This document shows, one piece after another, positions 2,506 to 18,943 of a DNA stretch of 19,889 nt (within the stretch, counting starts at the first letter, position 1; every line of letters begins with the position of its first letter). The notes beneath the pieces are model-generated. The model saw only the letters and a program-made list of their open reading frames with translations, did not search any database and was not told the DNA's origin. The translations under genes were made by a program, and so were the position numbers. This DNA is from a virus: UHGV virus genome UHGV-0130218; one strand, written 5' to 3'.

Positions 2506-2754
2506 ATGTATGATCAGTCTTTCAATCCGCGCACACTCTCACGATGTTTCAAACCTGAGGATTTCCATAAAAATAGAGCATTAAGTCTAGACAGTGTTCG
2601 AGAAAAGACTATTAACTCGGCTATCGAAAGATATAAGGATGGGTTCTTGGGTTATAATTTACGCTCATCCGTTTTAAGAGGGAAAACAGTATATTGGGCC
2701 GATGAGTTAGCTGATGTATTGGTCTTGAGGAAAATTAAAAAAAAATTTATCTAA
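2506..2754 (+). CDS. Reverse transcriptase, N-terminal (fingers) segment; frame ends inside an A9 tract
   Basis: ATG with RBS agga 8 nt upstream. 82 codons encoding ...GYNLRSSVLRGKTVYWADELADVLVLRKIKKK, consistent with RT motifs 1/2. Stops at 2752-2754, just after the A9 run at 2737-2745. Confidence 0.6.
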   Translation: MYDQSFNPRTLSRCFKPEDFHKNRALSLDSVREKTINSAIERYKDGFLGYNLRSSVLRGKTVYWADELADVLVLRKIKKKFI

Positions 2755-2845
2755 GCTATATCAATTAAGATTACCTTCTCGAACAAAGATTGTTGATACA
2801 TTAAAGGTTTTTTTATCAGAGTGTTCACAGTATAAAATATACAGA

Positions 2846-3769
2846 TTGGATATATTTTCATTTTATGAATCTTTCGATAAAAACTATATATTTAATAAAA
2901 TAGATGGATTGGAGCGGTTAGAGCTTAAAACAAAGCAGGTTCTAAAGGAATTTCTTTATTCATTCTATCTGAATGGTGGGCAAGGAATACCAAGAGGATT
3001 GTCAATCAGTGCATACTTGGCAGAGTTACTAATGTATGATTTCGATAATCAAGTGAAAGATAACCACTCTGTTTTTTATTATGCTAGGTATGTAGATGAT
3101 ATAGTTATTGTCACTAGTGGTTACGAAGATAGTGATGCTTTTATTGAGAATGTAAAATCAAACCTTCCAAATGGATTGCGTTTTAATGAAGGGAAGAAAT
3201 ATTATATTAGCGATTTAATTCCAAAATCTTCCAAAAAAACAAACCGTGCACCCTCCAAAAAATTGTTATCCTTTGAATATTTAGGGTACGATTTTAGCGT
3301 GGGAGATAAAATTGAAGAGTGCAATATAAGAGGATTCTATAGGGTAATTGAAATTGATCTTGCACATGCAAAGGCTAATAAAGTAAAAAGTAGAGTGATT
3401 TATTCGATTGTTGATTTTAATAAAACCAATGATTTTGAGTTGCTATGTGAAAGACTAAAATTCCTGTCCACAAACTTTAGTGTTTTAGATTCAGATAGAG
3501 TATTAAAACGGTTGTCGGGCATTCATTTTAATTATCCTCTTATTGATGCTAAATCTTCTAAGCGCCTTGCTGAACTTGATGTGTTTTTAAGAAAGGCTGT
3601 ATTATCATCTAGTGGTAAGGTTTTCTTTGATTTTCATGCGAACTTAAACCAATGCAAAAAATATCGATTACTTAAGATTAGTTTTGTTAGAGGCCATGAG
3701 AAACGTCATTTTTTTCATTATTCAGCTTCAAAAATGATGAAAATTCAAAGGTGTTGGAAATATGTCTAA
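2846..3769 (+). CDS. Reverse transcriptase, palm/thumb segment (the frame is open from 2729, so it is likely continuous with 2506-2754 after a +1 shift)
   Basis: RT motif A YRLDIFSFYESFDKNYIF, motif B QGIPRGLSISAYLAELLMYDFD, motif C YYARYVDDIVIV, motif D/E LRFNEGKKYYIS. No ATG or GTG precedes these motifs in this frame; the ORF track uses TTG at 2846. AT-rich. Confidence 0.8.
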   Translation: MDIFSFYESFDKNYIFNKIDGLERLELKTKQVLKEFLYSFYLNGGQGIPRGLSISAYLAELLMYDFDNQVKDNHSVFYYARYVDDIVIVTSGYEDSDAFIENVKSNLPNGLRFNEGKKYYISDLIPKSSKKTNRAPSKKLLSFEYLGYDFSVGDKIEECNIRGFYRVIEIDLAHAKANKVKSRVIYSIVDFNKTNDFELLCERLKFLSTNFSVLDSDRVLKRLSGIHFNYPLIDAKSSKRLAELDVFLRKAVLSSSGKVFFDFHANLNQCKKYRLLKISFVRGHEKRHFFHYSASKMMKIQRCWKYV

Positions 3770-5714
3770 AAAAAAGGAAGTAAGAGTTAATAAAAAAGAT
3801 TTTAATAGGGTTTTAGTTACTGAAACCATACCCTATGAAACGCCTATAATAGTGTCCAATGATGGTTTTTATAACAATGTAGTTAAATATACAACGGCCA
3901 ATGATACTGCTAAGGTATTGATTCAAAGAATAATTCTAGGGGAAAAGAAGAAAGGTAGGTATACGATTCCCTATGTTTTTAAAATTAATAAAAATGAGAC
4001 GGAGTTTCGACGTTTAGCCTTTCCACACCCCATATCTCAGATTGAAATGCGGGATTTTTATCTCCATTTTAATCAAATGATGATCAATTTTTGTTCCCGT
4101 AGTGATTTTTCTATTCGGCGACCGGTGAAGGTTGCAAGTACATATTATTATAAGAACTTATTGGAAGACAAGAATTTATATAAGAGAGGGCCTGTTGATA
4201 CCGACAAAAATGAACTATTAACTCGGCATGCTTCTTCATATTTTGGCTATCACGGATATGATCGCCTGTATAAGTTCTTTATGTCTAATGAGTTTATTGA
4301 CCTTGAGCGTAAATATAATACGCTATATACATTAGATGTTTCAAAATGTTTCGACAGTATCTATACTCATTCAATTTCTTGGGCTGCAAAAACCAAGACT
4401 TTCATTAAAGGGATGTTAGCTAATAAATCATTAAACTTTGGTGATGCTTTTGATAAATTAATGCAACGTTGCAACTTTAACGAAACCCATGGTGTAATTA
4501 TCGGTCCAGAAATTAGTCGAATATTCGCTGAGGTTATATTTCAAAAAATAGATTTAAATGTTCAGTTTAAATTAAATAATATCGAGCCATCGATACGTAA
4601 GGGTATCGATTATGATATTCGCCGTTATGTTGATGATGTTTTTATTTTTGCTAAAAATGAAACTAATGCCGAAATTATATATAAGATTTACACTGATAAA
4701 CTGAATGAATATAACATGCATATAAATTTGGGTAAAGTAACAAAAAACACTCGACCTTTTATCACAGCAAAAACGCAAATTATACATCACGTCAATCAAA
4801 GAATGAATTTATTTATTGAATCTTTTCTTGGTTATGATGATGAAATGAAATTAATCGCAAAGCCAATATATAACAATAGGAAGTTAGCTAACAAATTTAT
4901 AGATGAGGTGAAAATAATATGTGCTGAAAATAATGCGGGATATGGTGAGGTTGCTTCTTATATTGTGTCGGCGATTTTTGAAAGAATTAAAAGATTAACT
5001 TCTTCAGTTAATCAAGTCGAAGATAAAGATATATACAATGCAATGTATGTTTTGCTCCATATTTCATTGTTCTTTTTCAGAGTTGCTCCGTCTGTTAGTT
5101 CATCATATAAATTGGCTTCAATACTTATCGTGGCTCTCAGATATTTTAAGGCTAAAGTACCATCATACAGTGAGCTTATAGCATCATATGTTTATTTTGA
5201 AATTGAAGACTTTCTTAAATCTGCTAATACTAGCAAAGTAGCCATAGATAATCTAATTAGTCTTGAGGCATATAATATTATGTATGTTATAGGTGAGCTA
5301 GATCAAGAACGATATTTATCAAAACAGTTGATTGAGAACATTTTTAGTGAAGTTGATTCTTATTTTGATATAGTGTCCTGTCTATATATCGTAAAGGATA
5401 AGAAAGTTTATAATACACTTAAAAATAAAATTATTGATATTATTAACTCCAAGTTAATGTCAAGTGATAGTATTTTGGATTATAGTGAAAAGGCAATGCT
5501 CTTTTTGGATGTTATGTCTTGCCCTTATATTGATTTAAAATGGAAAAAAATATGGTTGAAATCAACTTTAAAAGAATTGCAAGAAGCTACTCCTAACAAT
5601 GAAAAAATAGATAGTTTTATCAGTTATTCTGTAGCGAATCCTTGGTTTGTGGACTGGAGTAATGTCGATCTTTTGAATTTCTTAGAAAAAAAACAATTGA
5701 AAAAAGCCTATTGA
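3762..5714 (+). CDS. Reverse transcriptase with long alpha-helical C-terminal extension (UG/Abi-type, defence-associated RT-like)
   Basis: 650 aa. Motif A YTLDVSKCFDSIYTHSI, motif B HGVIIGPEISRIFAEVIF, motif C RRYVDDVFIFAKN, followed by ~300 aa of predicted helical sequence. Its ATG overlaps the upstream RT stop by 8 nt, indicating translational coupling. AT-rich. Confidence 0.85.
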   Translation: MSKKKEVRVNKKDFNRVLVTETIPYETPIIVSNDGFYNNVVKYTTANDTAKVLIQRIILGEKKKGRYTIPYVFKINKNETEFRRLAFPHPISQIEMRDFYLHFNQMMINFCSRSDFSIRRPVKVASTYYYKNLLEDKNLYKRGPVDTDKNELLTRHASSYFGYHGYDRLYKFFMSNEFIDLERKYNTLYTLDVSKCFDSIYTHSISWAAKTKTFIKGMLANKSLNFGDAFDKLMQRCNFNETHGVIIGPEISRIFAEVIFQKIDLNVQFKLNNIEPSIRKGIDYDIRRYVDDVFIFAKNETNAEIIYKIYTDKLNEYNMHINLGKVTKNTRPFITAKTQIIHHVNQRMNLFIESFLGYDDEMKLIAKPIYNNRKLANKFIDEVKIICAENNAGYGEVASYIVSAIFERIKRLTSSVNQVEDKDIYNAMYVLLHISLFFFRVAPSVSSSYKLASILIVALRYFKAKVPSYSELIASYVYFEIEDFLKSANTSKVAIDNLISLEAYNIMYVIGELDQERYLSKQLIENIFSEVDSYFDIVSCLYIVKDKKVYNTLKNKIIDIINSKLMSSDSILDYSEKAMLFLDVMSCPYIDLKWKKIWLKSTLKELQEATPNNEKIDSFISYSVANPWFVDWSNVDLLNFLEKKQLKKAY

Positions 5715-5880
5715 ATTGCTAATTTGTTGTTGAAGCAACCAATATGCCCTACACGATTTTTCGATATACTAGGGCTGATTACGGTAGGTAAGTTGCATGT
5801 AACCTGGCCTACCTTATGACGCTCAAGAGCAGAAATGCACACACTAAGGGATGAGGTTGCTTCAACCCCTTTTATTTTCT
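5715..5880 (+). ncRNA. Candidate structured non-coding RNA downstream of the RT operon
   Basis: 5729-5740 GTTGAAGCAACC and 5855-5866 GGTTGCTTCAAC are perfect reverse complements (12 bp), enclosing ~115 nt with internal stems such as 5784-5789 GGTAGG / 5808-5813 CCTACC. A T-rich tail follows. No ORF. Confidence 0.35.
5848..5880 (+). terminator. Putative intrinsic terminator for the RT operon
   Basis: Stem GGTTG-CTT-CAACC at 5855-5867 followed by CCTTTTATTTTCT. The int stop codon (5862-5864 on the minus strand) lies in the loop. Confidence 0.4.
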
Positions 5881-7058
5881 ACAAAATTCCCCCACCACAG
5901 CATCAGCTCTACTCTTTGTTGCAAATAGACAGAGCGGTTGTATGCTCTTCGTACCTCATTCTTATCAGAATGAGCTAGTGCTGCTTCAATGACGTCTGGA
6001 TTAAATCCTTCTTCATTAAGCGTCGTGCTAGCTATCGAGCGTAAGCCATGAGCAACTAGCTTCCCATTCCAGCCAACTCTTTTTAGTGCAGCATTAGCCG
6101 TCTGGCTATTCATAGCTTTCTTAGGGTCATTTCTACTTGGAAAAACATGATCACGGTGCTTACTGATGGGTGCCATGATCTCAAGAATATAAAGCGCCTG
6201 AGGAGATAGAGGAATTAAATGTTCACGCTTCGCTTTCATCCTTTCGGCGGGGATTGTCCAGAGTTTTGAGTCGAGATCGATCTCTTCCCACCTGGTACCG
6301 GAGGCTTCAGAAGGGCGTACAAGGGTTAGGAGTTGCCACTCAATTAGACAGCGAGTAGGAACAGACAGATTTGACATAACCAAAGAACGCATCAGACTTG
6401 GTAATTCTTCTGGTCTAAGCGTAGGCATATTTTGCTTTTTAGGCCTCTCAAAAGCCATTCCAACTCCTGAGGTTGGGTTTGCGTCAATCAAGCCGGTATT
6501 TACCGCGTAAATCATAATCTCATTAATACGCTGTACCAGACGACGAACAGTCTCCAGAGCACCACGCGCTTTGATTGGCTCTAATGCTTCAACAATTGTT
6601 CTGGCCTTAATCTCCTGAACAGGTATCGTGCCTATTGCAGGGAAAACGTCCTTGTCTAAAGATCGCCAAATATCTTTTGCATAGTCTTCGGTGACGCTTT
6701 TGCTCTTCATTTTGAACCAGTTGGTGGCCACAGTTGAGAAAATGCTATCCAGCTCTATCTGACGCTTTTCTGATGCATGCTCTTGTTGCTGTTGTGGATC
6801 CATATCTAGCGCGAGCATGGTTAAGTGCTGGTCGCGTATCTGACGAGCTGCTGCGAGTGTAAAGGCAGGGTATGAGCCGAGACTCAAATTTGTGCGGCTG
6901 CTGCTTCCCGGTCGTTGATAACGGAAGCGCCAGAGTTTTTTGCCGGAGGTTTTTACGAGTAAGAACAGGCCATCACCATCATGCAGGGTGAAGTCTTTTT
7001 CGCGGGGTTTTGCTTTGAGGATTTCGTTGTTAGTGAGGGGGCGTGTAATGCGCGCCAT
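5862..7058 (-). CDS. int: P4-type tyrosine integrase
   Basis: 398 aa. N-terminus LTNNEILKAKPREKDFTLHDGDGLFLLVKTSGKKLWRFRYQRPG is typical of P4-family integrase arm-binding domains. The C-terminal catalytic region has HGLRS...LAHSDKNEVRRAYNRSVYL (R, H-x-x-R, Y). RBS aggga upstream. It is adjacent to a tmRNA 3' fragment, as with CP4-57 intA. Confidence 0.9.
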   Translation of the reverse strand: MARITRPLTNNEILKAKPREKDFTLHDGDGLFLLVKTSGKKLWRFRYQRPGSSSRTNLSLGSYPAFTLAAARQIRDQHLTMLALDMDPQQQQEHASEKRQIELDSIFSTVATNWFKMKSKSVTEDYAKDIWRSLDKDVFPAIGTIPVQEIKARTIVEALEPIKARGALETVRRLVQRINEIMIYAVNTGLIDANPTSGVGMAFERPKKQNMPTLRPEELPSLMRSLVMSNLSVPTRCLIEWQLLTLVRPSEASGTRWEEIDLDSKLWTIPAERMKAKREHLIPLSPQALYILEIMAPISKHRDHVFPSRNDPKKAMNSQTANAALKRVGWNGKLVAHGLRSIASTTLNEEGFNPDVIEAALAHSDKNEVRRAYNRSVYLQQRVELMLWWGNFVENKRG

Positions 7059-7079
7059 GTCTGGATCCCTTCCATAATT

Positions 7080-7127
7080 GGTACACGTTTAATGGACCAC
7101 AGTATAGCGTGTACCTAAACGTGTACC
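7080..7127. promoter_or_regulatory. Cluster of three 8-mer repeats (CGTGTACC) upstream of int; candidate integrase/regulator binding sites
   Basis: GGTACACG at 7080-7087 (inverted) and CGTGTACC at 7108-7115 and 7120-7127, between the int start and the att core. Confidence 0.3.
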
Positions 7128-7171
7128 TATTTTCTCTGGATTTAACCGGATGTTCTCGGACAACGCCAGAC

Positions 7172-7210
7172 ACAAAAAAGCCCGCAGGGCTTGCGCCGTG
7201 CGGGCTTTCA
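7172..7210 (-). terminator. Intrinsic terminator downstream of the tmRNA 3' fragment (minus strand)
   Basis: Minus-strand reading: GCCCGCA-(12-nt loop)-TGCGGGC followed by TTTTTTGTG (plus coordinates 7205-7172). Confidence 0.5.
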
Positions 7211-7262
7211 GGACTTCATCGGATGACTCTGGTAATCACCGATGGAACATTTTGGTGGAGCT

Positions 7263-7300
7263 GGCGGGAGTTGAACCCGCATCCGTAACCAGCTATCTCA
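7263..7300 (-). other. ssrA: tmRNA (ssrA) 3'-terminal fragment serving as att core (not a complete gene)
   Basis: Reverse complement of 7263-7290 is GCGGGTTCAACTCCCGCCAGCTCCACCA, which matches the T-arm, acceptor 3' strand and CCA end of enterobacterial tmRNA. Sequence beyond 7300 is AT-rich coding DNA with no tag-peptide region. Confidence 0.7.
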
Positions 7301-7311
7301 TTGAAAAATAA

Positions 7312-8172
7312 TCAAATAAATTTGTTTTTCCATGTCTCGTATCTTTTACGTATCCTTTGAAGTAGTAATGCCGTCCAGCTAAGGCCGTGAGAGAATGTTA
7401 GATTAAAAGTTGCTTCCACTGTATCTCCACGTATTGAGAATCTATTTATCCGATATTCAGTAGAAAAAAACTCTTTTTTTGTTGTTCCAGAGATTTCTTC
7501 ATATTCAATTAATAAAACAGGCCCATCTATTTGAGTTAACATATTTTCATGGAGGCTGATTTTATCCAAGAGGTAGTTAGATAATAGTGTCGGTATTAAT
7601 GTGGGGATGTGAAGATTTACCTCTTCTTTGTTAACGCTCCAAGGGAGAATATAAACAACATCAGAATATTGTTCTTCATGAGAATACCATTTGGATTGAC
7701 CAAAACCTAATAATGAAATGTAAGTGTGACCTTGTTTGTCTAATTGATAACAGTATTCATTAGCCATCATGGCTGCTTTGTAACCTTTGGTGTCAAAGGT
7801 ATGTTCATCGTCTAGTTTTTTTATTTTATTTAACAAAAAATGTTTTTCGTAATTGAATATCCATTGGTATTTGAATTTCAACGCTGGGCCTAGACCAACA
7901 TTTAATATTGGCAGGGTGGGATTGTTGTTTTTTGATATAGCATCAAAAACACCTTTGTTTACTATTTTTGTTTTATCAATTTTTATTTTTACATCTTTAG
8001 TGATTATCTGTACTTTGTTTGATAACTTTCTTTGGATAACAGTTTGCCTTATAGCTAAATAAGCAGCAATTGCTGATAAAGCACTTGCTGTCAAACCACC
8101 ATATCCGAGCCATGCGGGGTCTGCCATATCGAAGTATTCCTGCCTTATAACAAGGCAGGAATTATTTCTCAA
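7312..8172 (-). CDS. Hypothetical membrane-anchored protein; AT-rich moron between the lambdoid int and the att core
   Basis: 286-codon ORF with a TTG start; a more likely ATG start at 8127 gives MADPAWLGYGGLTASALSAIAAYLAI, a predicted N-terminal transmembrane helix. The ~240-aa soluble domain has no motif I recognise. Strongly AT-rich compared with the neighbouring int. Confidence 0.6.
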   Translation of the reverse strand: MRNNSCLVIRQEYFDMADPAWLGYGGLTASALSAIAAYLAIRQTVIQRKLSNKVQIITKDVKIKIDKTKIVNKGVFDAISKNNNPTLPILNVGLGPALKFKYQWIFNYEKHFLLNKIKKLDDEHTFDTKGYKAAMMANEYCYQLDKQGHTYISLLGFGQSKWYSHEEQYSDVVYILPWSVNKEEVNLHIPTLIPTLLSNYLLDKISLHENMLTQIDGPVLLIEYEEISGTTKKEFFSTEYRINRFSIRGDTVEATFNLTFSHGLSWTALLLQRIRKRYETWKNKFI

Positions 8173-9344
8173 TTCTTCACATTGTTCAAGGATGTGATCG
8201 ATGAGTTGTTATCATAATCTTTCAAATAGCGTCCGTAATGACGAAAGAGCATCTCAGGTCCTTTGTGGCCCATCTGCGCAGCCAGCCAAAATAAGTTTAC
8301 ACCGCAGCTTATCATACGTGTGGCGAATGTATGCCTTGTCTGATAAGGATTACGGTACCTGATACCGGCTTTCCGGAGCGTAGGAACCCAGGCTTTTTTC
8401 CTAATGGCGTCCGCGCTGGCCCATGGCTTGTTTGTCTTCGGATCTTCAAAGACACAACCATTCTTCATGAAGCTAAAGGGCTTTTGTTCGTTTAGAGCAA
8501 TCATCGCTTCCTCGGTTAACTCAACCTTGCGTGTTCCTGCCTTCGTTTTCGTACCTTTCGTCACGCCAGAGACGCTGGCGCTCTGTACATGAGCCGTCTT
8601 CTCAACGAAGTCAATGTCCCTCCAGCGTAGTGCGCAAAGTTCCGAACTGCGTAGACCTGTCTGAAGCGCAAATCTGAATAAGTTCTCCCATTGCTTATTA
8701 CCCGCTGATTTTAACAGCGCGCTTACCTCTGCTGGAGATAGTGGATCAACAATATAAGTACTTTCCTCGTCACTTTTTTTGCTTTGATATCGTGAAGCTG
8801 TTACCTGTGACACTGGATTAATTTGTAAAACACCATCAGTTACAGCTTCATCAAGTGAGGAACGAAGAAACGACAACTGGTTACGTATCGTCTTCAATGT
8901 TGTTTTCTGATTCTGAATCCATGTTTTTAATGCTGCTGGCGTTAACTCACTGGCCGGGAAAATGTGAAGTTCAGACAGTGCGCTACGGCATTTTTTATAC
9001 CCGCCAATGGTGGAGGGGGAAAGATTCCTCGTTTCGCAAATCTTCAGGTACTCATCAAGATACATTTTCACTGTTTTCCCGGTCGCAGCATTACCGAAAA
9101 TTTTTAACCTCACCGAACGAGGGAAATATTCAGCATAGATAAATGTTCCACGCTCGATTTTGTTGTGGATTTCGCCGAGCATACGCTCGGCATATTTAAG
9201 GTTTTTGTTGTTCACTTCTAGATTTGAAAGGGGTTCTCTGCATTTCACCCCCTTGTATGTGAACGTAATATTGATGGTTTCACCACTGCTGTGCTTCCTG
9301 ATGGTTACACCACGTGGGAGTTTAGGCGATTCTTTCGTGCCCAT
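8169..9344 (-). CDS. int: Phage tyrosine integrase (lambdoid type)
   Basis: 391 aa. C-terminal catalytic region RNPYQTRHTFATRMISCGVNLFWLAAQMGHKGPEMLFRHYGRYL (R...H-x-x-R...Y). Its start overlaps the xis-like ORF. Confidence 0.9.
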   Translation of the reverse strand: MGTKESPKLPRGVTIRKHSSGETINITFTYKGVKCREPLSNLEVNNKNLKYAERMLGEIHNKIERGTFIYAEYFPRSVRLKIFGNAATGKTVKMYLDEYLKICETRNLSPSTIGGYKKCRSALSELHIFPASELTPAALKTWIQNQKTTLKTIRNQLSFLRSSLDEAVTDGVLQINPVSQVTASRYQSKKSDEESTYIVDPLSPAEVSALLKSAGNKQWENLFRFALQTGLRSSELCALRWRDIDFVEKTAHVQSASVSGVTKGTKTKAGTRKVELTEEAMIALNEQKPFSFMKNGCVFEDPKTNKPWASADAIRKKAWVPTLRKAGIRYRNPYQTRHTFATRMISCGVNLFWLAAQMGHKGPEMLFRHYGRYLKDYDNNSSITSLNNVKN

Positions 9345-9545: not shown

Positions 9546-10118
9546 TTAAAACTTGTCGCTGTTGGTAGGGATCAGTTTCTGCCAAATTGCTGACAAATAT
9601 TTTGCCTGGTGTCGCGCATCAGCTAGGGCATTGTGCACATCGCCAATAAAAGGCATGTCACGCTTCGGATCGAAACCGACACTGCGACCAAGCGTAACAA
9701 TAGTGCGCACATCGTGATCGTTCCAAAAGCCCCAAGGGCATATGCGGCCGGCGCGTTCGTAAGCTCCACGCAGAATCACATTGTCAAAGGTGGCACCGTT
9801 ACCCCAGACCTTCATGTATTTTGGATTATCTGCGTGCCGGTGAATGAAATGGCTCAGTTCCGACAGTGCATCAGTGATAGGCAGCGCATCATCAACACAA
9901 ATAGCTGAGCGCGCTTCCGAGCTTTGTTTGAGCCACCAAAGAATAGTATCTCCGTCCGGTACCGCACCCTGATCCATTGCGCTTTCAAGCGAGATGGCCG
10001 TATAGAATTCTTGACCAAGTTCACCTGTATGAGGGTTAAAAAAGACGGCACCAATTGACACGATCGGCGCGTTTGGCTTTTTTCCCATCGATTCGAGGTC
10101 AATCATTAAGTCGTTCAA
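9546..10118 (-). CDS. DnaQ-like (DEDDh) 3'-5' exonuclease
   Basis: 190 aa. N-terminal Exo I motif MIDLESMG, and a C-terminal His/Asp motif HNALADARHQ. Confidence 0.65.
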   Translation of the reverse strand: MNDLMIDLESMGKKPNAPIVSIGAVFFNPHTGELGQEFYTAISLESAMDQGAVPDGDTILWWLKQSSEARSAICVDDALPITDALSELSHFIHRHADNPKYMKVWGNGATFDNVILRGAYERAGRICPWGFWNDHDVRTIVTLGRSVGFDPKRDMPFIGDVHNALADARHQAKYLSAIWQKLIPTNSDKF

Positions 10119-10402
10119 TTGCTTTCTCCATTGTTCTTGGCTTCTGATTCACTGTGGGGGCTGTAGCGCGAGTCGGCGTTGTCGCTAACGTGGCAATAAT
10201 GAGCCCCGTCAGGACGAGTACAAATTGTCCCGCACCTATCACATGCCAATATTGCTTCCAGCTCCGCGATCCGCTCCTCTGCTTTTGACAACTGCTCGAG
10301 AAGTTCTTCTGCTAACGTCACACGCATCACGACTTTCTGACAGTCGTGGCGCTTGGCTCTGGCGATTGTGCCGCGCAGACTCGCATAATTGTTGGGGGTC
10401 AT
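10115..10402 (-). CDS. Hypothetical phage early protein (Cys-containing, coiled-coil)
   Basis: 95-aa ORF overlapping its downstream neighbour by 4 nt, indicating an operon. No assignable domain. Confidence 0.5.
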   Translation of the reverse strand: MTPNNYASLRGTIARAKRHDCQKVVMRVTLAEELLEQLSKAEERIAELEAILACDRCGTICTRPDGAHYCHVSDNADSRYSPHSESEAKNNGESN

Positions 10403-10596
10403 TGGACGGACTCCTGACGAAGATGGTTAATTTCGGCGTCAAGGCTCATTCGCTGGTCCATCGATTCCGTCAAGGCGGCAAATGTAACGTCCAGGCGAGT
10501 GGCTACCTCACGCATCAGAGAAGCTTCTGCTGGTGACAGTTTCTCCGCCGCAGCATGGGCTGCGGCTACCAGTTCTTTTATCTTCATGCGAGGCAT
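10399..10596 (-). CDS. Hypothetical small phage early protein
   Basis: 65-aa ORF in the same operon, overlapping both neighbours. Helical, charged. Confidence 0.45.
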   Translation of the reverse strand: MPRMKIKELVAAAHAAAEKLSPAEASLMREVATRLDVTFAALTESMDQRMSLDAEINHLRQESVQ

Positions 10597-11123
10597 GCGC
10601 GTGATTCCGTAAGCTCATTGAAACGGTTAATGAACAAGCCATATGCTTGGCCTGGACGAAGAGGGACGATCTGGATAATGTCGCTGGCCGGTATACCTTC
10701 AAGACAAGGCCAGAGTGAGCCGTCGTCGATATCCAGATCGCGGCGTTCAGTGGCAAGCATCACCAGATCGGCGTATTTCACTACCGCTGACATATCAGGG
10801 GTGATGCTGAATTTGGCCCGGATCAGCTGTTCTACCCGCTCTTCAATGCGACGATAATCTGGAAGCAATGCCTTTAGGGGGGCAGGTATGTCTTGGCAAT
10901 AGGCTTCAGCTGCATCATGCATCAGGGCTTCAAAGGCAAACTCTGGCGGCACAATTTGGCTGCACAGTACCGAGTGCTGGGCCACGCTGTAAAATTCCGG
11001 CAGATGACCACTGAAGCGGCAGATGTGGGAAAGTGCGGTCGCAATATCCTCGAGCTCTACATCGTCAGCGGTTGAATTAAGGTAATTGAATTTCTTACCT
11101 GAAAGTGTCTGGATATAACTCAT
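10584..11123 (-). CDS. HD-domain phosphohydrolase (YfdR-like prophage protein)
   Basis: 179 aa. HD signature ...SVAQHSVLCS...ALMHDAAEAY. Size and neighbourhood match the CPS-53 yfdP-yfdQ-yfdR arrangement. Confidence 0.75.
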   Translation of the reverse strand: MSYIQTLSGKKFNYLNSTADDVELEDIATALSHICRFSGHLPEFYSVAQHSVLCSQIVPPEFAFEALMHDAAEAYCQDIPAPLKALLPDYRRIEERVEQLIRAKFSITPDMSAVVKYADLVMLATERRDLDIDDGSLWPCLEGIPASDIIQIVPLRPGQAYGLFINRFNELTESRACLA

Positions 11124-11257
11124 CGTCTTTTCTTCTCCATATTTGGCAGCTGCACCTGCGCTAGTTTTGGTTGTACGAATCCCTCGCCTTTGGCGATTAA
11201 TAAAGGGAATTGCGCTTCAATAAATCCCCGCGGCGCCGGGGATTTAATGCAGAGAAA

Positions 11258-12088
11258 TTACGCTTTAAAGTTACCGATAAAGGTTTCTACTGGCTCGCCG
11301 TCGAATTTGCTGATTAGCAGATCTCGGAATTCATTGGCGATCGCTTCTTCCTGCGCTTCCAGCTGAACAATACGCAGAACAAAGCGTGGTTCGTCACCTG
11401 TGAGTAGACTATTGCGAAGGCTGAATGCTCGCTCACCAAGACCTTCATACGGCACGCATTTGAACTCGAACGCTACCGGCATTACATCTTTGCTGCTGGC
11501 CTCAACGCTCTGCATTAGTGATTTTTTCCCGCTGAAATCACCGTCTTCATGATCCTGCTGAGTCGCCTGCTGGATAGTGATGCGACGAACAGCCTGAGCA
11601 GCCTGTGAAATCTGCATGGTATTTCCTTCAGCATCAAAGGCCAGCAGGTAATCACTCCAGTCTTCCAGCCATTCGGCGATCTGCTTTTGCTTCAGTCGGT
11701 CACCGTTAATCGCCAGCAGCGCGCGGAAAGGTGCAGTCTGTTTCAGGGTGATTGCAGCAACGTTATCAGCATGGCCTGGGTTTTCCAGCGTGCCGATATT
11801 GAACACGGAGCGTGCTGTCATATTGTCCGCATCGATAAAGCAGCGAGCCGGCTCTTCGACACTGGCATACCCTTTAGAATAACGGGCGAAATCATTGATG
11901 CTGGTCGTGGTCATGGCGCCACGGAAGCGGAAGCGCTCCAGTGAAAAATTTTCCAGGCTCGCTACCTTTGTATTTTCCGGCAAAATAGCTGTTGGACAGG
12001 CGAGTCCGTTAATATCATTCAGGTGATAGCCGGAGAGAACCAGGTCTTTAACCTGTTTGATGGCGCTGCTGTCTAGTTGCTGAGACAT
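11258..12088 (-). CDS. YfdQ-like prophage protein (DUF2303-type)
   Basis: 276 aa. Called from size and position between the YfdP-like and YfdR-like genes. No catalytic motif recognised. Confidence 0.6.
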   Translation of the reverse strand: MSQQLDSSAIKQVKDLVLSGYHLNDINGLACPTAILPENTKVASLENFSLERFRFRGAMTTTSINDFARYSKGYASVEEPARCFIDADNMTARSVFNIGTLENPGHADNVAAITLKQTAPFRALLAINGDRLKQKQIAEWLEDWSDYLLAFDAEGNTMQISQAAQAVRRITIQQATQQDHEDGDFSGKKSLMQSVEASSKDVMPVAFEFKCVPYEGLGERAFSLRNSLLTGDEPRFVLRIVQLEAQEEAIANEFRDLLISKFDGEPVETFIGNFKA

Positions 12089-12144
12089 AAAAATTCCTTA
12101 TCTGCTAATGATCGAAGTGGTTGCAGTGAATTGGTTGAGGCGGT

Positions 12145-12516
12145 TCACTGAGCCGCTTTAAGCTTTCCGTCAACGCCGCCGTTGATGCCGAACAACTGTC
12201 CCTGATCTTCTTGGAGGATGGTCAGCTTGCCGCCTTTGTTAACCCACATTGGTGTTTCGGTGGTGTCTTCTTCGGAGGCTTTACCGCGCGGGGTAGGGGT
12301 TACGTAGTTCAGCTTGTGCTTGATCTTGACGCGCTTCTCTTCGACGGAGTTACCCATACGCTCAATATCAAAGGTGAGGACTACTTTGCCTTTGGTACCG
12401 TTGTTCAGAACGCCAAGCGCGGTAGTGTTTAAAGCTGCCGCGATCTTGTTCATGAACACGCCGGCATCCAGTTCGCCCAGGAAATCGGGCACTACGGTCA
12501 TGCGGTCATTACTCAT
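12145..12516 (-). CDS. YfdP-like prophage protein
   Basis: 123 aa, first sizeable ORF of the leftward early operon. Assignment is by synteny and size only. Confidence 0.5.
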   Translation of the reverse strand: MSNDRMTVVPDFLGELDAGVFMNKIAAALNTTALGVLNNGTKGKVVLTFDIERMGNSVEEKRVKIKHKLNYVTPTPRGKASEEDTTETPMWVNKGGKLTILQEDQGQLFGINGGVDGKLKAAQ

Positions 12517-13267
12517 GGTTTAACCCTCTGTGAGGCGGCTGCCACCGCCAGTGGAACTTCTCCATACACAACAGAAAAGGGCACCTGCGTAGCAGTGAAG
12601 ATTGCAGCCTCCATTTCTGCGCCCGGGTGGATTGGGGAATGAGCCCGTCGCCCGGTGATGCCCTTGTCTCTTGTGTAAAAAAGGTGCCCACCGATGTGAT
12701 GGGCAAAGACTACTCACAGCAATGATTTTGTTGTGGCGGTGGTGCCTCCACCTGCCGGACCGGCCAGAACCGGCGACGCTACACCTCAAGAAACGTATTC
12801 ATTTCAAATGTTGAAATAAAAACTTGTTGGCCTCGTCACGTGCGCAGAGCCGCATTACCACAACTGGAAGCGCACTCCGCCAGGTAACAAACCGATCCCC
12901 ATCAGTAAGAAGAGGAGTGCGCTTTCATGTTGTGTTGTGTTGGTCGGTGCTGATCTCCGGCTTTCGGGATGGTTTTGCCATTGCCCCGCGCGGGTTAATA
13001 GTCCGCTGCACATCAGCCTGTGCATTCACCACAACGGTGAGGGCACTGTTTATCTGCTTTACCGATTCGCGTCTCACGCAGTCCGATAATCAGCAATGCT
13101 CTCGCCTGTTGTGCCCTTAAAAAGCTGGCTGTCACCCTCAAGGGGAAAGTGAGCAGCCAGAACAGGGATCACTTCTTATTGCTTTGGCCTGCTTTTAACC
13201 ACATCAGGCGCGGTGGTTCTGCTTAACAACCGCGAAAGTAATAGTGGGTACCAATCGCGTGATTTAA

Positions 13268-13319
13268 ATGTACCTTTAGTTACTTTTTCGGTCAAGCGAG
13301 GAATGTACTTTTTGTTACC
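13268..13319. promoter_or_regulatory. OL-like operator region (two copies of the ATGTACYTTTWGTTAC motif)
   Basis: 13268-13283 atgtacctttagttac and 13303-13318 atgtactttttgttac, immediately 3' of the repressor gene. The same motif recurs at 14078-14093 in the cI-cro intergenic region. Confidence 0.45.
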
Positions 13320-13371
13320 ATGAGGGATAAAAAAAATGCCAGATGAGCATCCGGCATTAGAAATGAATAAC

Positions 13372-14031
13372 TTAAATATTCTGGGTTATCTGAACAACTT
13401 TACCGACAATCCGGCAATTTCCATCTATCGGTATAGGTTTGAAGGCAGGATTAAGCGGCATCAGATACGCGAAAGGGCTATCCCAGACGAGTTTTTTCAC
13501 TGTTGCTTCAGCAGAGCCATCAAGTATCGCCACGACTATTTTCCCGTAAAGGTCATCCAGTTGGCCATAGTGTGGTTCAACTATTACGATCGACCCTTCG
13601 GGTATGGATGGTAGACCATGTGGGTTAGTCATCGATTCCCCACGAACAACCAGGCCGAATACTTCATCAGAAACGTTTGCAGTGGTTTGCGTCCATGAAA
13701 TCACATCAGAAAGCCTTGAGCATGCGTAAGTATCAGTCCACGTCCCTGCCTGGACAGCAGAGATAATTGGAACTGCCTTAGGGGGCTTGAGAAAGGGGAT
13801 CACTTTGGTGTCATCCTGCGCTTCATCTCCTTTCCCGTAGAGAATCCATTCAGGCGTGGTTTGCAACGCCATCGCCAGCTGATGGAGGTTCTCACCATCA
13901 GGCTTCGTGTTACCGCTCTCCCATTTAGTAACGGACACGCGGCTAACACCTAGGCGTTTAGCTAGGGTCTGCTGCGTTATATCGAGCTGGACTCGACGGG
14001 ATCTTATTCGGTCTTTCATCTCTGTTTTCAT
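13372..14031 (-). CDS. cI: CI-type phage repressor (HTH plus S24 LexA-like peptidase domain)
   Basis: 219 aa. N-terminal HTH QQTLAKRLGVSRVSVTKWESG. C-terminal GESM (Ser nucleophile) and ATVKKL (Lys) motifs. Divergent from the cro-like gene. Confidence 0.85.
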   Translation of the reverse strand: MKTEMKDRIRSRRVQLDITQQTLAKRLGVSRVSVTKWESGNTKPDGENLHQLAMALQTTPEWILYGKGDEAQDDTKVIPFLKPPKAVPIISAVQAGTWTDTYACSRLSDVISWTQTTANVSDEVFGLVVRGESMTNPHGLPSIPEGSIVIVEPHYGQLDDLYGKIVVAILDGSAEATVKKLVWDSPFAYLMPLNPAFKPIPIDGNCRIVGKVVQITQNI

Positions 14032-14094
14032 GTAACCAATGTTACATTGATTCCTTGTAACTGTTGTTTGCTATTTGATGTACCTTTTGTTACC
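14032..14094. promoter_or_regulatory. OR-like operator region between cI and cro
   Basis: Inverted half-sites TGTAAC-N4-GTTACA at 14031-14046, gtaactgttg at 14055-14064, and atgtaccttttgttac at 14078-14093. RBS aggagg at 14113-14118 precedes cro. Confidence 0.45.
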
Positions 14095-14123
14095 TTTAAG
14101 GCGTGAGTTAACTAGGAGGAGCC

Positions 14124-14312
14124 ATGCGTAAATCACAAGTTATTGAGCACTTTGGCGGAGTATCAAAAACCGCCAGTGTTCTTGGGATCTCCCATCCGGC
14201 TGTTTGCCGATGGGGAGAGGTTATTCCTCAGAAGCAAGCGTTCGTTATCGAACGAATTACTGAAGGCAAGCTTAAGTACGACGCCAGCCTTTATCAGAAG
14301 CCTACAGATTAG
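14124..14312 (+). CDS. cro: Cro-type small HTH repressor
   Basis: 62 aa. VIEHFGGVSKTASVLGISHPAVCRWGEVIPQKQAFVIERITEGKLKY resembles P22-type Cro as I recall it. Divergent from cI, with a strong RBS. Confidence 0.8.
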   Translation: MRKSQVIEHFGGVSKTASVLGISHPAVCRWGEVIPQKQAFVIERITEGKLKYDASLYQKPTD

Positions 14313-14349
14313 GCATCTGGGAAGAAACCACAGATATAAGGGGTTAGCC

Positions 14350-14898
14350 GTGGGTATAGAACCTGAATGGAAAGTAGATAAGCAGCCAGCCTGGCTGGTG
14401 GCCGCAATCAAAAAAACGATAACCGAGCTTCCTGGCGGGTATTCCGAAGCAGCTGAGTGGTTGGGTGTGACCGAGAACGCGCTGTTTAACCGGCTGCGTA
14501 CCGATGGTGATCAGATCTTCCCGCTCGGTTGGGCGATGGTGCTTCAGCGTGCTGGTGGTTCAAACCACATAGCGAACGCTATTGCACGTCACTCGAACGG
14601 TGTGTTTGTGCCATTGGCTGATGTTGAAAAGATTGAGAACGGCGATATCAACCAGCGTCTCATGGAGTCAGTTGAGTGGATCGGCAGGCATTCGCAATAC
14701 GTTCGTAAAGCTACCGCTGACGGCGTTATTGATGCTCAGGAACGCGCCCAGATCGAAGAGAACAGCTATCAGGTGATGGCTAAGTGGCAGGAACATTTGA
14801 CGCTGCTTTTCCGTGTGTTTTGCGCGCCGGAAAAGAGTGACGCCCGCGAGTGTGCAGCTCCGGGCGTCGTGGCAGACAAATCTTGTATGGAGAAGTAA
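14350..14898 (+). CDS. CII-like / YdaT-like regulatory protein (start probably GTG at 14350, not the longer 14143 frame)
   Basis: The long ORF-track frame from 14143 would overlap cro. GTG at 14350 is preceded by aagggg 8 nt upstream. Position after cro and size (~183 aa) fit CII-like regulators of lambdoid prophages. Family call is tentative. Confidence 0.5.
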   Translation: MGIEPEWKVDKQPAWLVAAIKKTITELPGGYSEAAEWLGVTENALFNRLRTDGDQIFPLGWAMVLQRAGGSNHIANAIARHSNGVFVPLADVEKIENGDINQRLMESVEWIGRHSQYVRKATADGVIDAQERAQIEENSYQVMAKWQEHLTLLFRVFCAPEKSDARECAAPGVVADKSCMEK

Positions 14899-15070
14899 TC
14901 CGCATGACCAGTTTAACGGCTTTTAACCGTTTACCGCAACTCAGGATGATCCCGGTACCGGGCGCTCCGTTGTTTCGGTATGAACGCAGAATAGCAAACC
15001 GCTGGGTGCCATGTAACCACAGTCGGGCGGTCGCAATTGTGGGGGTTTACTACAGGAAGGCGAAACGCTT

Positions 15071-15250
15071 ATGCGCGAAGTTAACCGAAGGTTCAAAGAC
15101 CACAGAGGGATCCCCGTTCGGGTTATCCGGTGGGAGCCAGAGACTCAACGAGTTATCTACCTGCGGGATGGTTATAACCACGAATGTTTCAGCCCGCTCG
15201 AACAATTTAAGCGCAAGTTTACAGAGTTAAAGGACGACCATGAGCACTAA
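15071..15250 (+). CDS. Small conserved phage protein (59 aa), below the ORF-track size cutoff
   Basis: ATG at 15071 with GAAGG upstream. Encodes MREVNRRFKDHRGIPVRVIRWEPETQRVIYLRDGYNHECFSPLEQFKRKFTELKDDHEH, a balanced protein-like composition. It overlaps the next gene start and lies fully inside the low-complexity 14850-15230 frame. Confidence 0.4.
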   Translation: MREVNRRFKDHRGIPVRVIRWEPETQRVIYLRDGYNHECFSPLEQFKRKFTELKDDHEH

Positions 15251-16103
15251 ATTAACGGGTTACGTTTGGGACGCTTGTGCCGCTTCTGGCATGAAGCTGT
15301 CCAGCGTTGCCATCATGGCGCGTCTGGCAGACTTCAGCAGTGATGAAGGGGTTAGCTGGCCTTCCATCGCTACCATTGCGCGCCAGATTGGTGCCGGTGA
15401 GAGCACGGTTCGCACAGCCATATCTCAACTGGAAAAAGACGGGTGGTTAACCCGTCAGCAGCGCCGTAAAGGCAACCGCAATGCATCGAACGTTTACCAG
15501 CTTAATGTTGCGAAATTACAGGCTGCTGCCTTTTCTCACCTGTCAGATTCTGACGCATCAAAATCTGATGCCTCAAAAACCGACGCGTCAAAATCTGAGG
15601 CATCAAAAAACGATGAAAAAGGCGGTTTTCACCCGTCAGAATCTGGGGGGGATCCGTCAGTAAATACAACTACTGATCCATCAGATAAAAAACATTCTTG
15701 TCCGGTTGCTGCGCAACCCGACCCTGTGGTGGTTATCACCGATCAGGCGAAGCAGGTTTTATCACATCTGAACAAGACCACTGGTTCACGGTATCAGGTC
15801 TGCAAATCGTCCTTGGAAAACATCCGGGCTCGCCTGGCTGACGGGTTTACGCCCGATGAGCTGCTGTTGGTGGTGGATTACAGCGTCGAGAAGTGGGGCG
15901 AGGATCTGAAAATGGCCGAATACCTGCGCCCAACAACGTTGTTTTTGCCATCTAAATTCCCAGGTTACCTGCAATCCGCAAATAAGTGGAACGCAGCAGG
16001 ACGCCCAGAACGACAGTACTGGGGCTCAATTCGTAAGCATGATCCGATGAAATTTGGTGGGCCAGATAAAGCCATCCCAGCTGGCTTCAGGGGAGCGAAA
16101 TGA
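15240..16103 (+). CDS. Replication initiator (lambda O-like; N-terminal winged-HTH, C-terminal phage replication-protein domain) with internal repeats
   Basis: 287 aa. N-terminal HTH-like segment VSWPSIATIARQIGAGESTVRTAISQLEKDGWL. Central (S/T)DASK pentapeptide repeats encoded by 15-bp tandem repeats. Position after cro/cII as for lambda O. Confidence 0.65.
   Translation: MSTKLTGYVWDACAASGMKLSSVAIMARLADFSSDEGVSWPSIATIARQIGAGESTVRTAISQLEKDGWLTRQQRRKGNRNASNVYQLNVAKLQAAAFSHLSDSDASKSDASKTDASKSEASKNDEKGGFHPSESGGDPSVNTTTDPSDKKHSCPVAAQPDPVVVITDQAKQVLSHLNKTTGSRYQVCKSSLENIRARLADGFTPDELLLVVDYSVEKWGEDLKMAEYLRPTTLFLPSKFPGYLQSANKWNAAGRPERQYWGSIRKHDPMKFGGPDKAIPAGFRGAK
15549..15608 (+). repeat. Four tandem 15-bp repeats inside the O-like gene; candidate origin iterons
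   Basis: tctgacgcatcaaaa / tctgatgcctcaaaa / accgacgcgtcaaaa / tctgaggcatcaaaa, in frame (coding SDASK-like repeats). Analogous to the lambda ori iterons, which lie within O. Confidence 0.5.
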
Positions 16104-18929: not shown

Positions 18930-18943
18930 TATGGAGAAATAGC

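Follow-up and report, generated by a model that had tools for sequence, protein, structure and literature searches.

A predicted gene for the DRT3 non-coding RNA between drt3b and the integrase gene of a P4-like satellite

DRT3 systems and the locus in the window

According to published work, the DRT3 (UG3 + UG8) anti-phage system requires a structured non-coding RNA (ncRNA) encoded downstream of UG8. This RNA is part of a 6:6:6 complex; DRT3a copies the conserved ACACAC loop of the RNA into poly(dTdG) (Wang et al.; Deng et al.), and the second reverse transcriptase (RT) writes poly(AC), templated by side chains of its own protein. [quoted passage not shown] The DRT3 complex of E. coli has been solved by cryo-EM (PDB 9z6y/9z6z; Deng et al. 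2026), and the EcoDRT3 ncRNA of E. coli ECOR12 (161 nt) has been defined by RIP-seq (Gao et al. 2020; Wang, Yoneyama et al. 2026, Table S3). A short loop template beside a structured element, copied repeatedly into tandem-repeat DNA, is also found in the DRT10 and DRT9 ncRNAs and in telomerase RNA, an analogy which Wang et al. draw explicitly. These systems differ in their RT clades, template sequences and products (poly-dA for DRT9); among them, DRT3 alone combines RNA-templated synthesis of one strand with a second RT that is protein-templated.

We analysed a stretch of viral DNA of 19,889 nucleotides (UHGV-0130218, referred to as the window), in which positions 5729-5880 are very probably the gene for the DRT3 ncRNA. 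This identification is based on the adjacent Drt3a and Drt3b, the ACACAC template, a covarying closing helix and 96% identity to the corresponding region of E. coli GF3-3; the same evidence bears out the preliminary description of this DNA, which had proposed a structured ncRNA of the kind needed by defence RTs. The element has been described before (Gao 2020; Deng 2026; Wang 2026); it is closely orthologous to the RNA of the solved E. coli complex. The DRT3 operon is located in a P4-like satellite, between cos and int, and the genes and predicted features of the locus are as follows:

2506-3769, + strand: drt3a (UG3, Class 2 RT), PADLOC Drt3a, split into ORFs 2506-2754 and 2846-3769
3762-5714, + strand: drt3b (UG8, Class 1 RT), 650 aa, PADLOC Drt3b with 741.9 bits over the full length
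5697-5725, + strand: predicted sigma-70 promoter of the ncRNA, proposed from positional conservation
5732-5878, + strand: predicted DRT3 ncRNA transcript, about 140-147 nt, both ends being predictions
5862-7058, - strand: P4-type integrase gene int (Pfam Phage_integrase, Phage_int_M, Arm-DNA-bind_3)

Judged by the sequences of its products, drt3a-drt3b is a DRT3 defence operon. The drt3a product matches the PADLOC Drt3a profile in two parts (62 bits for residues 1-80; 359.5 bits for profile positions 114-416) as well as PDB 9z6y_A (Drt3a), and the YVDD motif is present. Drt3b matches PDB 9z6y_H (Drt3b) with 1337.8 bits; its residues E26 and R253, named in a published commentary as base-selecting, are invariant in an alignment of 18 homologues. 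Concerning the integrity of the two partner RT genes, drt3b is intact and drt3a is not: a +1 frameshift, possibly a sequencing error, splits it into ORFs of 82 and 307 aa. It lies in a run of A at about 2736-2744, which is A9 in the window and A8 in L089, a 98%-identical relative with an intact gene. Unless the frameshift is such an error, the system may be inactive here. The int gene is convergent with the ncRNA gene, overlaps it by about 17 nt and is a neighbour outside DRT3. The convergent int arrangement is also seen in L001, L089 and L095, and int is absent beside the ncRNA in Dickeya (L094).

In E. coli GF3-3 (NZ_CP053259), drt3a, drt3b, the ncRNA and a convergent P4-type int follow one another in the same order as in the window, again within a P4-like satellite located at ssrA. 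Over 201 nt the two ncRNA regions share 96% identity, and the motifs CCAAUAUGCCCU, ACACAC and AGGGAUGAGG are unchanged. GF3-3 Drt3b matches 9z6y_H with 1444 bits over all 650 residues, which is consistent with identity or near-identity; the window RNA is tied to the solved complex indirectly, through a protein match and a genomic neighbour. The two loci differ slightly in the apex of the long hairpin, in the tetraloop beside the template (GAAA in the window, GCAA in GF3-3, both GNRA) and in drt3a, which is frameshifted in the window. The closing helix P1 also differs, with about 6 bp and an isolated pair in GF3-3 and 12 bp in the window, because the outer 5' arm is different.

The Drt3b of the ECOR12 system is only distantly related to that of the window (PDB 26cz_A, 317 bits). 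The ECOR12 ncRNA also lies just downstream of drt3b, starting 16 nt past the stop codon; in its fold a closing helix begins at nucleotide 1, internal hairpins lie inside, and an unpaired ACACAC separates a hairpin from the 3' strand of the closing helix. Its carrier, too, is a P4-like satellite, with psu and ogr/delta nearby. Read side by side, however, the ECOR12 ncRNA has none of the conserved motifs of the window's clade except ACACAC, and megablast searches of E. coli genomes with the window-type or the ECOR12-type region recovered only the type used as the query. ECOR12 also has a separate canonical terminator hairpin, GGCCGCGAAAGCGGCC-UUUUU, whereas in the window the 3' arm of P1 directly abuts the U-tract. 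The protein start and end coordinates in Table S3 of Wang et al. do not fit the stated lengths and seem to be swapped; the distance from drt3b to the ECOR12 ncRNA was therefore measured in the identical locus of a complete genome.

Anatomy of the predicted RNA

The structured region begins 15-17 nt past the drt3b stop codon, on the strand shared with drt3b. Its elements, all on the + strand, are listed below:

5729-5740, + strand: 5' arm of P1, conserved core 5731-5740 UGAAGCAACC
5743-5750, + strand: 5' strand of P2, UAU-G-CCCU, within the conserved CCAAUAUGCCCU, paired with 5847-5853 in the RNAalifold consensus
5754-5763, + strand: small hairpin CGA-UUUU-UCG (helix 3), from predicted folds
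5769-5827, + strand: long variable hairpin, base CU.GGGC / GCUC.AG (helix 4)
5783-5789 with 5807-5813, + strand: middle of the long hairpin, GGUAGGU / GCCUACC, from predicted folds
5792-5803, + strand: apex of the long hairpin, GUUG-CAUG-UAAC, from predicted folds
5829-5838, + strand: template-adjacent hairpin GCA-GAAA-UGC (helix 6), 3 bp with a GNRA loop, directly 5' of the template
5839-5844, + strand: template 5'-ACACAC-3', single-stranded in every predicted fold
5847-5853, + strand: 3' strand of P2, AGGGAUG, within the conserved AGGGAUGAGG motif, 3' of the template
5855-5866, + strand: 3' arm of P1, conserved core 5855-5864 GGUUGCUUCA, containing the int stop codon
5855-5878, + strand: terminator-like 3' end, GGUUG-CUU-CAACC (5855-5867) or P1, then CC-UUUUAUUUU (5870-5878)

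In the predicted RNA the inverted repeat forms the closing helix P1, lengthened by P2 and enclosing the hairpins and the single-stranded ACACAC; the outer 2 bp of P1 are specific to the window sequence and its 98% relatives. The hairpin at 5829-5838 probably corresponds to 'stem-loop 4' of Wang et al., going by the published text, and probably sets the template boundary. A kink-turn in the CCAAUAU / AUGAGG internal loop was considered and dropped by eye, as it does not fit the standard k-turn pattern. The preliminary description had overlooked the ACACAC template, the functional centre of the element.

Several of its other observations hold. The 12-nt repeat reported at 5729-5740 and 5855-5866 is exact (GTTGAAGCAACC is the reverse complement of GGTTGCTTCAAC, with a spacer of 114 nt), and its length was never reached in 1000 dinucleotide-preserving shuffles of 5715-5885, in which the longest perfect inverted repeat is mostly 6-7 nt and at least 10 nt in 0.8%. 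Inverted repeats of 12 nt or more within 250 nt number 11 in the 19.9-kb window as a whole, so length alone does not single out this one; the case for it rests on position and conservation. Each arm is self-complementary, as had been noted: both are near-palindromes which differ only in the centre (AAG vs CTT). The hairpin GUUGCAUGUAAC at 5792-5803 is found in the minimum-free-energy fold, and the T-rich tail is present as TTTTATTTT at 5870-5878. For the GGTAGG/CCTACC stem, CCTACC is at 5808-5813 as given, while GGTAGG is at 5783-5788 and not at 5784-5789. The region had also been described as free of ORFs, which is true for ORFs of at least 60 aa; four mechanical ORFs of 25-47 aa overlap the region, and the int stop codon (5862-5864, minus strand) falls inside the 3' arm.

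The predicted fold of 5732-5878 has a free energy of -42 kcal/mol, and the sequence folds more stably than its shuffles, with z = -3.0 for this segment and z = -2.8 for 5715-5885. Rfam 15 is without a DRT3 ncRNA family, and the window has no match in it at the gathering score. Permissive matches (E up to 10) to STnc240 and mir-302, at E = 3.5 and 9.5, are attributed to chance.

The RNA appears to be made from its own sigma-70 promoter overlapping the end of drt3b. The predicted -35 hexamer TTGAAA (5697-5702) coincides with drt3b codons Leu646-Lys647, the 17-nt spacer contains the TGA stop codon of drt3b, and the extended -10 is TGcTAATTT (5717-5725). The -10 begins 6 nt past the stop codon, and the transcript would start near G5732, at the base of P1. 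A strict consensus sigma-70 scan called no promoter, so the proposal rests on positional conservation: in 52 of 83 non-identical loci a TAnnnT follows the Leu646 hexamer at a spacing of exactly 17 nt, compared with 0-5 at non-coding background offsets, the -35 hexamer itself being confounded with the conserved Leu-Lys codons. In the ECOR12-type locus, a TATTTT hexamer precedes the published RIP-seq 5' end by 7 nt, and the drt3b stop codon precedes it by 16 nt.

At the other end, the RNA probably terminates within the U-tract at 5870-5878. In a pattern scan, 5855-5867 and the T-rich tail are terminator-like on the + strand, with a weak stem (5 bp, 3-nt loop). The enterobacterial relatives and a number of AT-rich loci have a U-rich tail after P1, and most others lack it; the U-tract as a universal 3' end was rejected, since it is confined to the window's clade and some AT-rich loci.

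Conservation and covariation across loci

Of 81 homologous loci, drawn from many lineages within and outside the proteobacteria, 76 have an ACACAC 97-228 nt past the drt3b stop codon, and base frequencies lead to a chance estimate of about 0.07 per 300 nt. A covariance model built from the window and five close relatives matches the + strand downstream of drt3b in 20 further loci. On the window itself it scores 182.6 bits on the + strand vs 25 bits on the - strand. Near-palindromic close relatives also give minus-strand matches to the model.

The preliminary description had suggested folding and covariation analysis across homologous loci as a check. Both were run, and the stems covary. The covariation alignment comprises 20 independent sequences, only from loci left out of model building; it is fitted to the model structure and so favours that structure in the counts which follow, an effect which an alignment-free test offsets, though for P1 only. 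In this alignment, 93% of the cells are paired vs 34-52% with slid partners, compensatory changes occur in 30 of 43 pairs, and none of 500 shuffles reached any of the observed measures. Looking at each helix separately, both sides are changed in 10 of the 13 pairs of helix 1 (P1 and part of P2), and compensatory changes are seen in 3 of 4 pairs of helix 2 (P2), in all 3 of helix 3 (the small hairpin at 5754-5763) and in all 6 of helix 4 (the base of the long hairpin). The third pair of helix 6 (5829-5838) is AU in 9 sequences, GC in 8 and CG in 2. The long inner hairpin is gapped out in most distant sequences, and distant loci have another hairpin there; its support consists of few compensatory changes in close relatives (in L084, the GGUAGG/CCUACC stem shows G-C to A-U and A-U to U-A) and of a hairpin of some kind at this position in other loci.

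The alignment-free test took, in each of the loci, the longest helix joining the two flanks. It lies at the place that matches P1, 10-24 nt past the drt3b stop codon and 1-15 nt past ACACAC, in 65 of 84 loci vs 5.1% of shuffles. G.U pairs make up 11% of the P1 pairs across loci in this search, which indicates that P1 is an RNA helix on the + strand. The self-complementarity of the individual arms is kept only in the closest relatives.

Alternative readings and proposed role

A region between convergent genes, in which the pattern scan marks 5855-5877 on the + strand (GGTTG-CTT-CAACC, then CCTTTTATTT), could be a transcription terminator and nothing else, possibly a bidirectional one between the RT operon and int, with no function as an RNA. 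We consider this highly improbable: it leaves unexplained both the ACACAC at its conserved distance from drt3b and about 115 nt of conserved, covarying inner structure, an RNA of the same kind lies beside drt3b in Dickeya, where int is missing, and most distant loci lack the U-tract after P1. The preliminary description had named a bidirectional terminator for the RT operon and int as the reading left if the RNA were refuted; a terminator for int is not supported, as on the minus strand the helix is followed by AACAAATTAGC and not by a U-tract. Its proposed switch between terminator and long-range stem lacks comparative support, as the arms lose their self-complementarity outside the closest relatives. 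The likeness it drew to the a1/a2 repeats of retrons proves superficial. An msr-msd element is indeed a structured RNA bracketed by inverted repeats and used by an adjacent RT, and the enclosed RNA would here be reverse-transcribed from a 2'-OH branch into msDNA. However, retron ncRNAs are located upstream of the RT, whereas this RNA is downstream, and the RT family is another one: the RTs score as Drt3a and Drt3b (UG3 and UG8), with the generic RT and CRISPR-associated RT models at about 34-41 bits among the matches listed. Retrons prime from a 2'-5' branch at a conserved G and copy the msd body, in contrast to the dinucleotide repeat of DRT3, and the published role of the DRT3 RNA is that of a telomerase-like repeat template. 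A retron-like element is hardly conceivable at this locus.

The neighbouring P4-type integrase and the near-palindromic arms could equally suggest a palindrome acting at the DNA level (an att core, or a binding site for the integrase or a regulator), a reading to which we assign a negligible probability. The attachment site lies beyond int, where a partial ssrA 3' end is found at about 7050-7289 (ssrA is beyond int in L001 as well); a scan for tRNAs and tmRNAs was negative, so the repeat is no att site derived from a tRNA. The element travels with drt3b and not with int, and its helix is kept through G.U pairs and wholesale sequence replacement, which points to a constraint on the RNA rather than on the DNA. 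More weight, though still less than even, is due to the possibility that the ncRNA gene is intact in a system which is dead or decaying, the RNA being a relic without current function. The A9 run does split drt3a, and Drt3a is the enzyme that reads the RNA; on the other hand, a one-base homopolymer difference is typical of sequencing or assembly errors, the nearest relatives have an intact drt3a, and the rest of the operon is undamaged (drt3b is full length and the ncRNA has every conserved motif). We regard this decay as doubtful.

Taking the region as the DRT3 ncRNA gene, and extrapolating from the orthologous systems, Drt3a would bind the RNA and copy ACACAC over and over in a telomerase-like manner to give poly(dTdG). 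The poly(GT/AC) duplex would then build up once phage Gam blocks RecBCD, leading to abortive infection. The ncRNA may further be an autonomous, separately regulated transcription unit and not a mere 3' tail of the RT operon, so that int expression could tune DRT3, an idea which we put forward as quite unlikely. In P4-like satellites, transcription from the convergent int would pass through the entire ncRNA gene in antisense, and satellite induction, with the expression of int, could lower or raise the level of the template RNA and in this way tune DRT3 activity. A literature search of partial coverage found no mention of such a coupling between int and the ncRNA.

The element itself brings no new biology, and the comparative results are of modest practical value. 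The frameshifted drt3a of this copy is relevant for cloning or annotating the locus, and the anatomy of the RNA (closing helix, GNRA-capped boundary hairpin, template) is usable over about 80 divergent loci. A real functional RNA was recognised here from the sequence alone, and the RNA of DRT3 serves as template and scaffold in a DNA-synthesis machine that ranks among the most unusual yet described.

The DRT3 operon and its satellite

The 650-aa ORF at 3762–5714 matches the Drt3b model of PADLOC from end to end (741.9 bits), and the two ORFs preceding it match Drt3a: the ORF at 2506–2754 covers the N-terminal 80 residues of the model and that at 2846–3769 covers profile positions 114–416. Both reverse transcriptase (RT) proteins also match the chains named Drt3a and Drt3b reverse transcriptase in PDB 9z6y/9z6z, the solved E. 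coli complex. Judged by these matches, the operon is a DRT3 system. The reading frame of drt3a is shifted (+1) after residue 80 by the homopolymer at 2736–2744, which is A9 in the window and A8 in the intact, 98%-identical relative L089. Either A9 is a sequencing error in the homopolymer, or the DRT3 system is inactive in this genome; a real mutation would be inactivating, and possibly slippage-prone, in the RT that uses the ncRNA. The frameshift is the one serious caveat on functional status.

The genes around the operon form a P4-like satellite set (Ogr/Delta-like zinc finger, primase fragment, cos-like sequence and P4-type integrase, int). In the E. coli GF3-3 homologue the layout is that of the window, psu–drt3a–drt3b–int–ssrA; psu, carried by relatives, seems to be missing from the window. 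Directly after the Ogr/Delta-like gene lies a second perfect 12-nt inverted repeat (GCACGGCCAGTT at 2044–2055, AACTGGCCGTGC at 2221–2232, 165 nt apart). The stretch from there to drt3a (~2090–2505) is conserved with L089 and includes GGCGTGGCGGGGAGAGCAT, which is presumably the P2/P4 cos-like sequence. The left part of the satellite, beside a 63-aa primase (Pox_D5) fragment at 1333–1524, contains a 281-aa ORF (within 50–1207, − strand) whose C-terminus matches the bacterial CdiA-CT RNase A toxin domain (115 bits); the 99-aa ORF after it could encode its immunity protein.

The sequence upstream of int (7050–7289) has matches in 744 E. coli genomes, where it corresponds to the 3′ end of ssrA (tmRNA) nearest int. 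No complete tmRNA gene was found in the window, and the segment looks like an attachment-site copy of the ssrA 3′ end, in which the hairpin AAAGCCCGCAGGGC/GCCGTGCGGGCTTT (7177–7208) is probably the ssrA terminator. Since a second integrase (8169–9344) lies beyond this copy, two mobile elements appear to stand in tandem at ssrA. A prophage-like block (9546–19636) follows:

9546–10118: Rv2179c-like 3′-5′ exoribonuclease
11258–12088: DUF2303 protein
13372–14031: CI-like S24 repressor
14143–14898: CII-like regulator
15240–16103: replication-like protein
16100–16999: Dam methylase
16992–18929: C5-cytosine methylase-like protein, 645 aa
18896–19636: antirepressor

Structure of the region downstream of drt3b

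The preliminary description placed a structured region bracketed by an inverted repeat directly after the operon, and this observation is confirmed. The 12-nt repeat is exact: GTTGAAGCAACC at 5729–5740 is the reverse complement of GGTTGCTTCAAC at 5855–5866, and 114 nt separate the arms. In 1000 dinucleotide-preserving shuffles of 5715–5885 the longest perfect inverted repeat was mostly 6–7 nt and 12 was never seen. Length alone does not single out this repeat, since 11 that are 12 nt or longer, within 250 nt, occur across the window. As + strand RNA the region folds into one closed domain (−46.3 kcal/mol, z = −2.8), in which the repeat forms the closing helix. Concerning the inner elements, GUUGCAUGUAAC is present at 5792–5803 and CCTACC at 5808–5813, as described, while GGTAGG occupies 5783–5788, one base before the position first given; the T-rich tail TTTTATTTT spans 5870–5878. 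The claim that the region has no ORF holds for ORFs of at least 60 aa; four mechanical ORFs of 25–47 aa overlap it. The convergent integrase gene ends inside the 3′ arm, its stop codon being 5862–5864.

The RNAalifold consensus of the window and five close relatives contains 43 pairs, in the following elements:

5729–5740 / 5855–5866, + strand: P1, the closing helix
5743–5750 / 5847–5853, + strand: P2, a short helix inside P1
+ strand: small hairpin
+ strand: long three-part hairpin
+ strand: template-adjacent hairpin

In the homologous locus L084 two of the GGUAGG/CCUACC pairs differ at both positions (A-U in place of G-C, U-A in place of A-U). The covariance model built from the same six sequences matches the + strand just past drt3b in 20 further loci, none of them used in building it. 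In the 20-locus alignment, standard pairs fill 93% of cells, compared with 34–52% when the 3′ partners are slid by 1–3 columns; both-side changes occur in 30 of the 43 pairs, and none of 500 shuffles reached any observed covariation measure. Helix 1 (P1 and part of P2) shows compensatory changes in 10 of 13 pairs, one position being AU in nine loci, GC in seven, CG in three and UA in one. Because this alignment was fitted to the model, an alignment-free test was also run, taking in each locus the longest uninterrupted helix between the post-stop sequence and the 45 nt after ACACAC. A helix of at least 8 bp, starting 10–24 nt past the stop and with its 3′ arm 1–15 nt past ACACAC, was found in 65 of 84 non-identical loci versus 5.1% of shuffled controls. 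G·U accounts for 81 of 742 pairs in this helix, and the covariance model scores 182.6 bits on the + strand of the window versus 25 bits on the − strand; the constraint therefore acts on + strand RNA, unlike that on a DNA palindrome.

The conserved P1 core in the window's clade is 10 bp (5731–5740 / 5855–5864), and the outer two pairs of the repeat are confined to the window and its 98% relatives; P1 of GF3-3 is left with 6 bp and one isolated pair, against 12 bp in the window. In distant loci the long inner hairpin is swapped for other hairpins of different length, which suggests that its apex probably has no sequence specificity.

The ACACAC template and the predicted transcript ends

The motif ACACAC (5839–5844), overlooked in the preliminary description, lies directly 3′ of a GAAA-capped hairpin of 3 bp (5829–5838) and 2 nt ahead of the P2 3′ strand, and is unpaired in all predicted folds. 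The loci sampled were 80 encoding Drt3b relatives (one genome per species, 31–47% protein identity), to which closer relatives (58–98%) were added. Of 81 loci, 76 have ACACAC 97–228 nt past the drt3b stop, the chance estimate from base frequencies being ~0.07 per 300 nt; among the five loci without it, L044 and L058 have just 15 and 70 nt after the stop. In the enterobacterial clade CCAAUAUGCCCU, GAGAGCAGAAAUGC-ACACAC-UAAGGGAUGAGG and the arms are nearly invariant, and the intervening sequence varies. The region is a DRT3 ncRNA gene, and the preliminary suggestion, an ncRNA on which a defence RT system depends, was correct. Gonzalez-Delgado et al. 2021, with reference to Gao et al. 2020, state that DRT type 3 (UG3 + UG8) requires a structured ncRNA encoded after the UG8 gene. 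Wang, Yoneyama et al. (bioRxiv 10.64898/2026.05.04.722794) report that this ncRNA has a highly conserved 5′-ACACAC-3′ in a loop, that poly(dTdG) synthesis by DRT3a depends on the ncRNA, that ACACAC mutation abolishes both product and defence, and that read-through into 'stem-loop 4' beside the template truncates products; poly(dCdA) is made by DRT3b without a nucleic-acid template, and the duplex accumulates upon RecBCD inhibition by phage Gam. According to two commentaries on Deng et al. 2026, Drt3a, Drt3b and ncRNA form a D3-symmetric 6:6:6 complex with the RNA as template and scaffold.

In a complete genome carrying the locus type of E. coli ECOR12, which has another characterised DRT3 ncRNA, the published 5′ end is 16 nt past the drt3b stop; the hexamers TTGCGA and, 18 nt downstream of it, TATTTT precede this end, TATTTT by 7 nt. 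The EcoDRT3a and EcoDRT3b coordinates in Table S3 of that preprint (bioRxiv 10.64898/2026.05.04.722794) disagree with the stated lengths and are apparently swapped; the 16 nt were re-measured in the identical locus L097. A promoter search in 83 non-identical loci was anchored on the conserved Leu646 codon (hexamer mostly TTGAAA): TAnnnT occurs exactly 17 nt downstream of this hexamer (6 nt after the stop) in 52 loci, and at other non-coding offsets in 0–5. The corresponding feature of the window is:

5697–5725, + strand: predicted extended −10 promoter, TTGAAA at 5697–5702 (Leu646–Lys647), 17 nt including the stop codon, TGcTAATTT at 5717–5725

This promoter would place the ncRNA start close to G5732, where P1 begins; it is an inference, as a strict consensus promoter scan gave no call at 5697–5725 and the −35 is inseparable from codon conservation. 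The predicted start agrees with the published ECOR12 5′ end.

The end of int overlaps the ncRNA gene, its last six codons and stop (5862–5880, − strand) lying over the P1 3′ arm and U-tract (5855–5878, + strand), likewise in L001, L089 and L095; as the two are convergent, int transcripts running past the stop would be complementary to the ncRNA along its full length.

Alternative readings and characterised relatives

A scan finds a terminator-like pattern, the hairpin GGUUG-CUU-CAACC at 5855–5867 followed by CCUUUUAUUU. The U-rich tail after P1 is present in enterobacterial relatives and some AT-rich loci, not generally; L084, L085 and L088 lose the local hairpin and keep the tail, which is why the tail is taken as the likely 3′ end in the window's clade. 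The proposed switch between terminator and P1 conformations has no comparative support, given that hairpin loss, and the minus strand has no U-tract after the helix, contrary to a bidirectional terminator. A pure terminator cannot explain the region: it leaves the invariant template and 115 nt of covarying structure unaccounted for, and in Dickeya the RNA adjoins drt3b without int. The analogy with retron a1/a2 repeats fails on RT family, on RNA position and on the published product, as a retron-like msr-msd does not fit a DRT3 product that is a dinucleotide repeat, with no cDNA mapping to the RNA body (bioRxiv 10.64898/2026.05.04.722794). An att site or protein-binding palindrome is rejected because int separates the region from the attachment site (partial ssrA 3′ end, ~7050–7289) and the helix is kept via G·U pairs and sequence replacement.

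Compared with characterised systems, GF3-3 Drt3b matches 9z6y_H with 1444 bits over all 650 residues, which suggests that they are identical or near-identical, and the window's Drt3b scores 1337.8 bits. Given this match and the 96% identity between the window and GF3-3 across 201 nt spanning the ncRNA region, the window RNA and the one expected in the solved complex are close orthologues. The Drt3b of ECOR12 is distant from the window's (PDB 26cz_A, 317 bits), and its 161-nt, RIP-seq-defined ncRNA (Table S3, bioRxiv 10.64898/2026.05.04.722794) shares, on reading it against the window, ACACAC alone of the conserved motifs of the window's clade. Its architecture is that of the window: a 10-bp closing helix begins at nucleotide 1 and encloses hairpins, and ACACAC is unpaired immediately ahead of the 3′ strand; a separate terminator hairpin comes next.

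The DRT3 ncRNA has already been described genetically, biochemically and structurally, and the copy in the window is closely orthologous to the characterised RNA. To this family, whose biology is remarkable, our analysis adds a predicted promoter, conserved in position, that spans the stop codon of drt3b, the general anatomy of the RNA over ~80 loci, and the drt3a frameshift.
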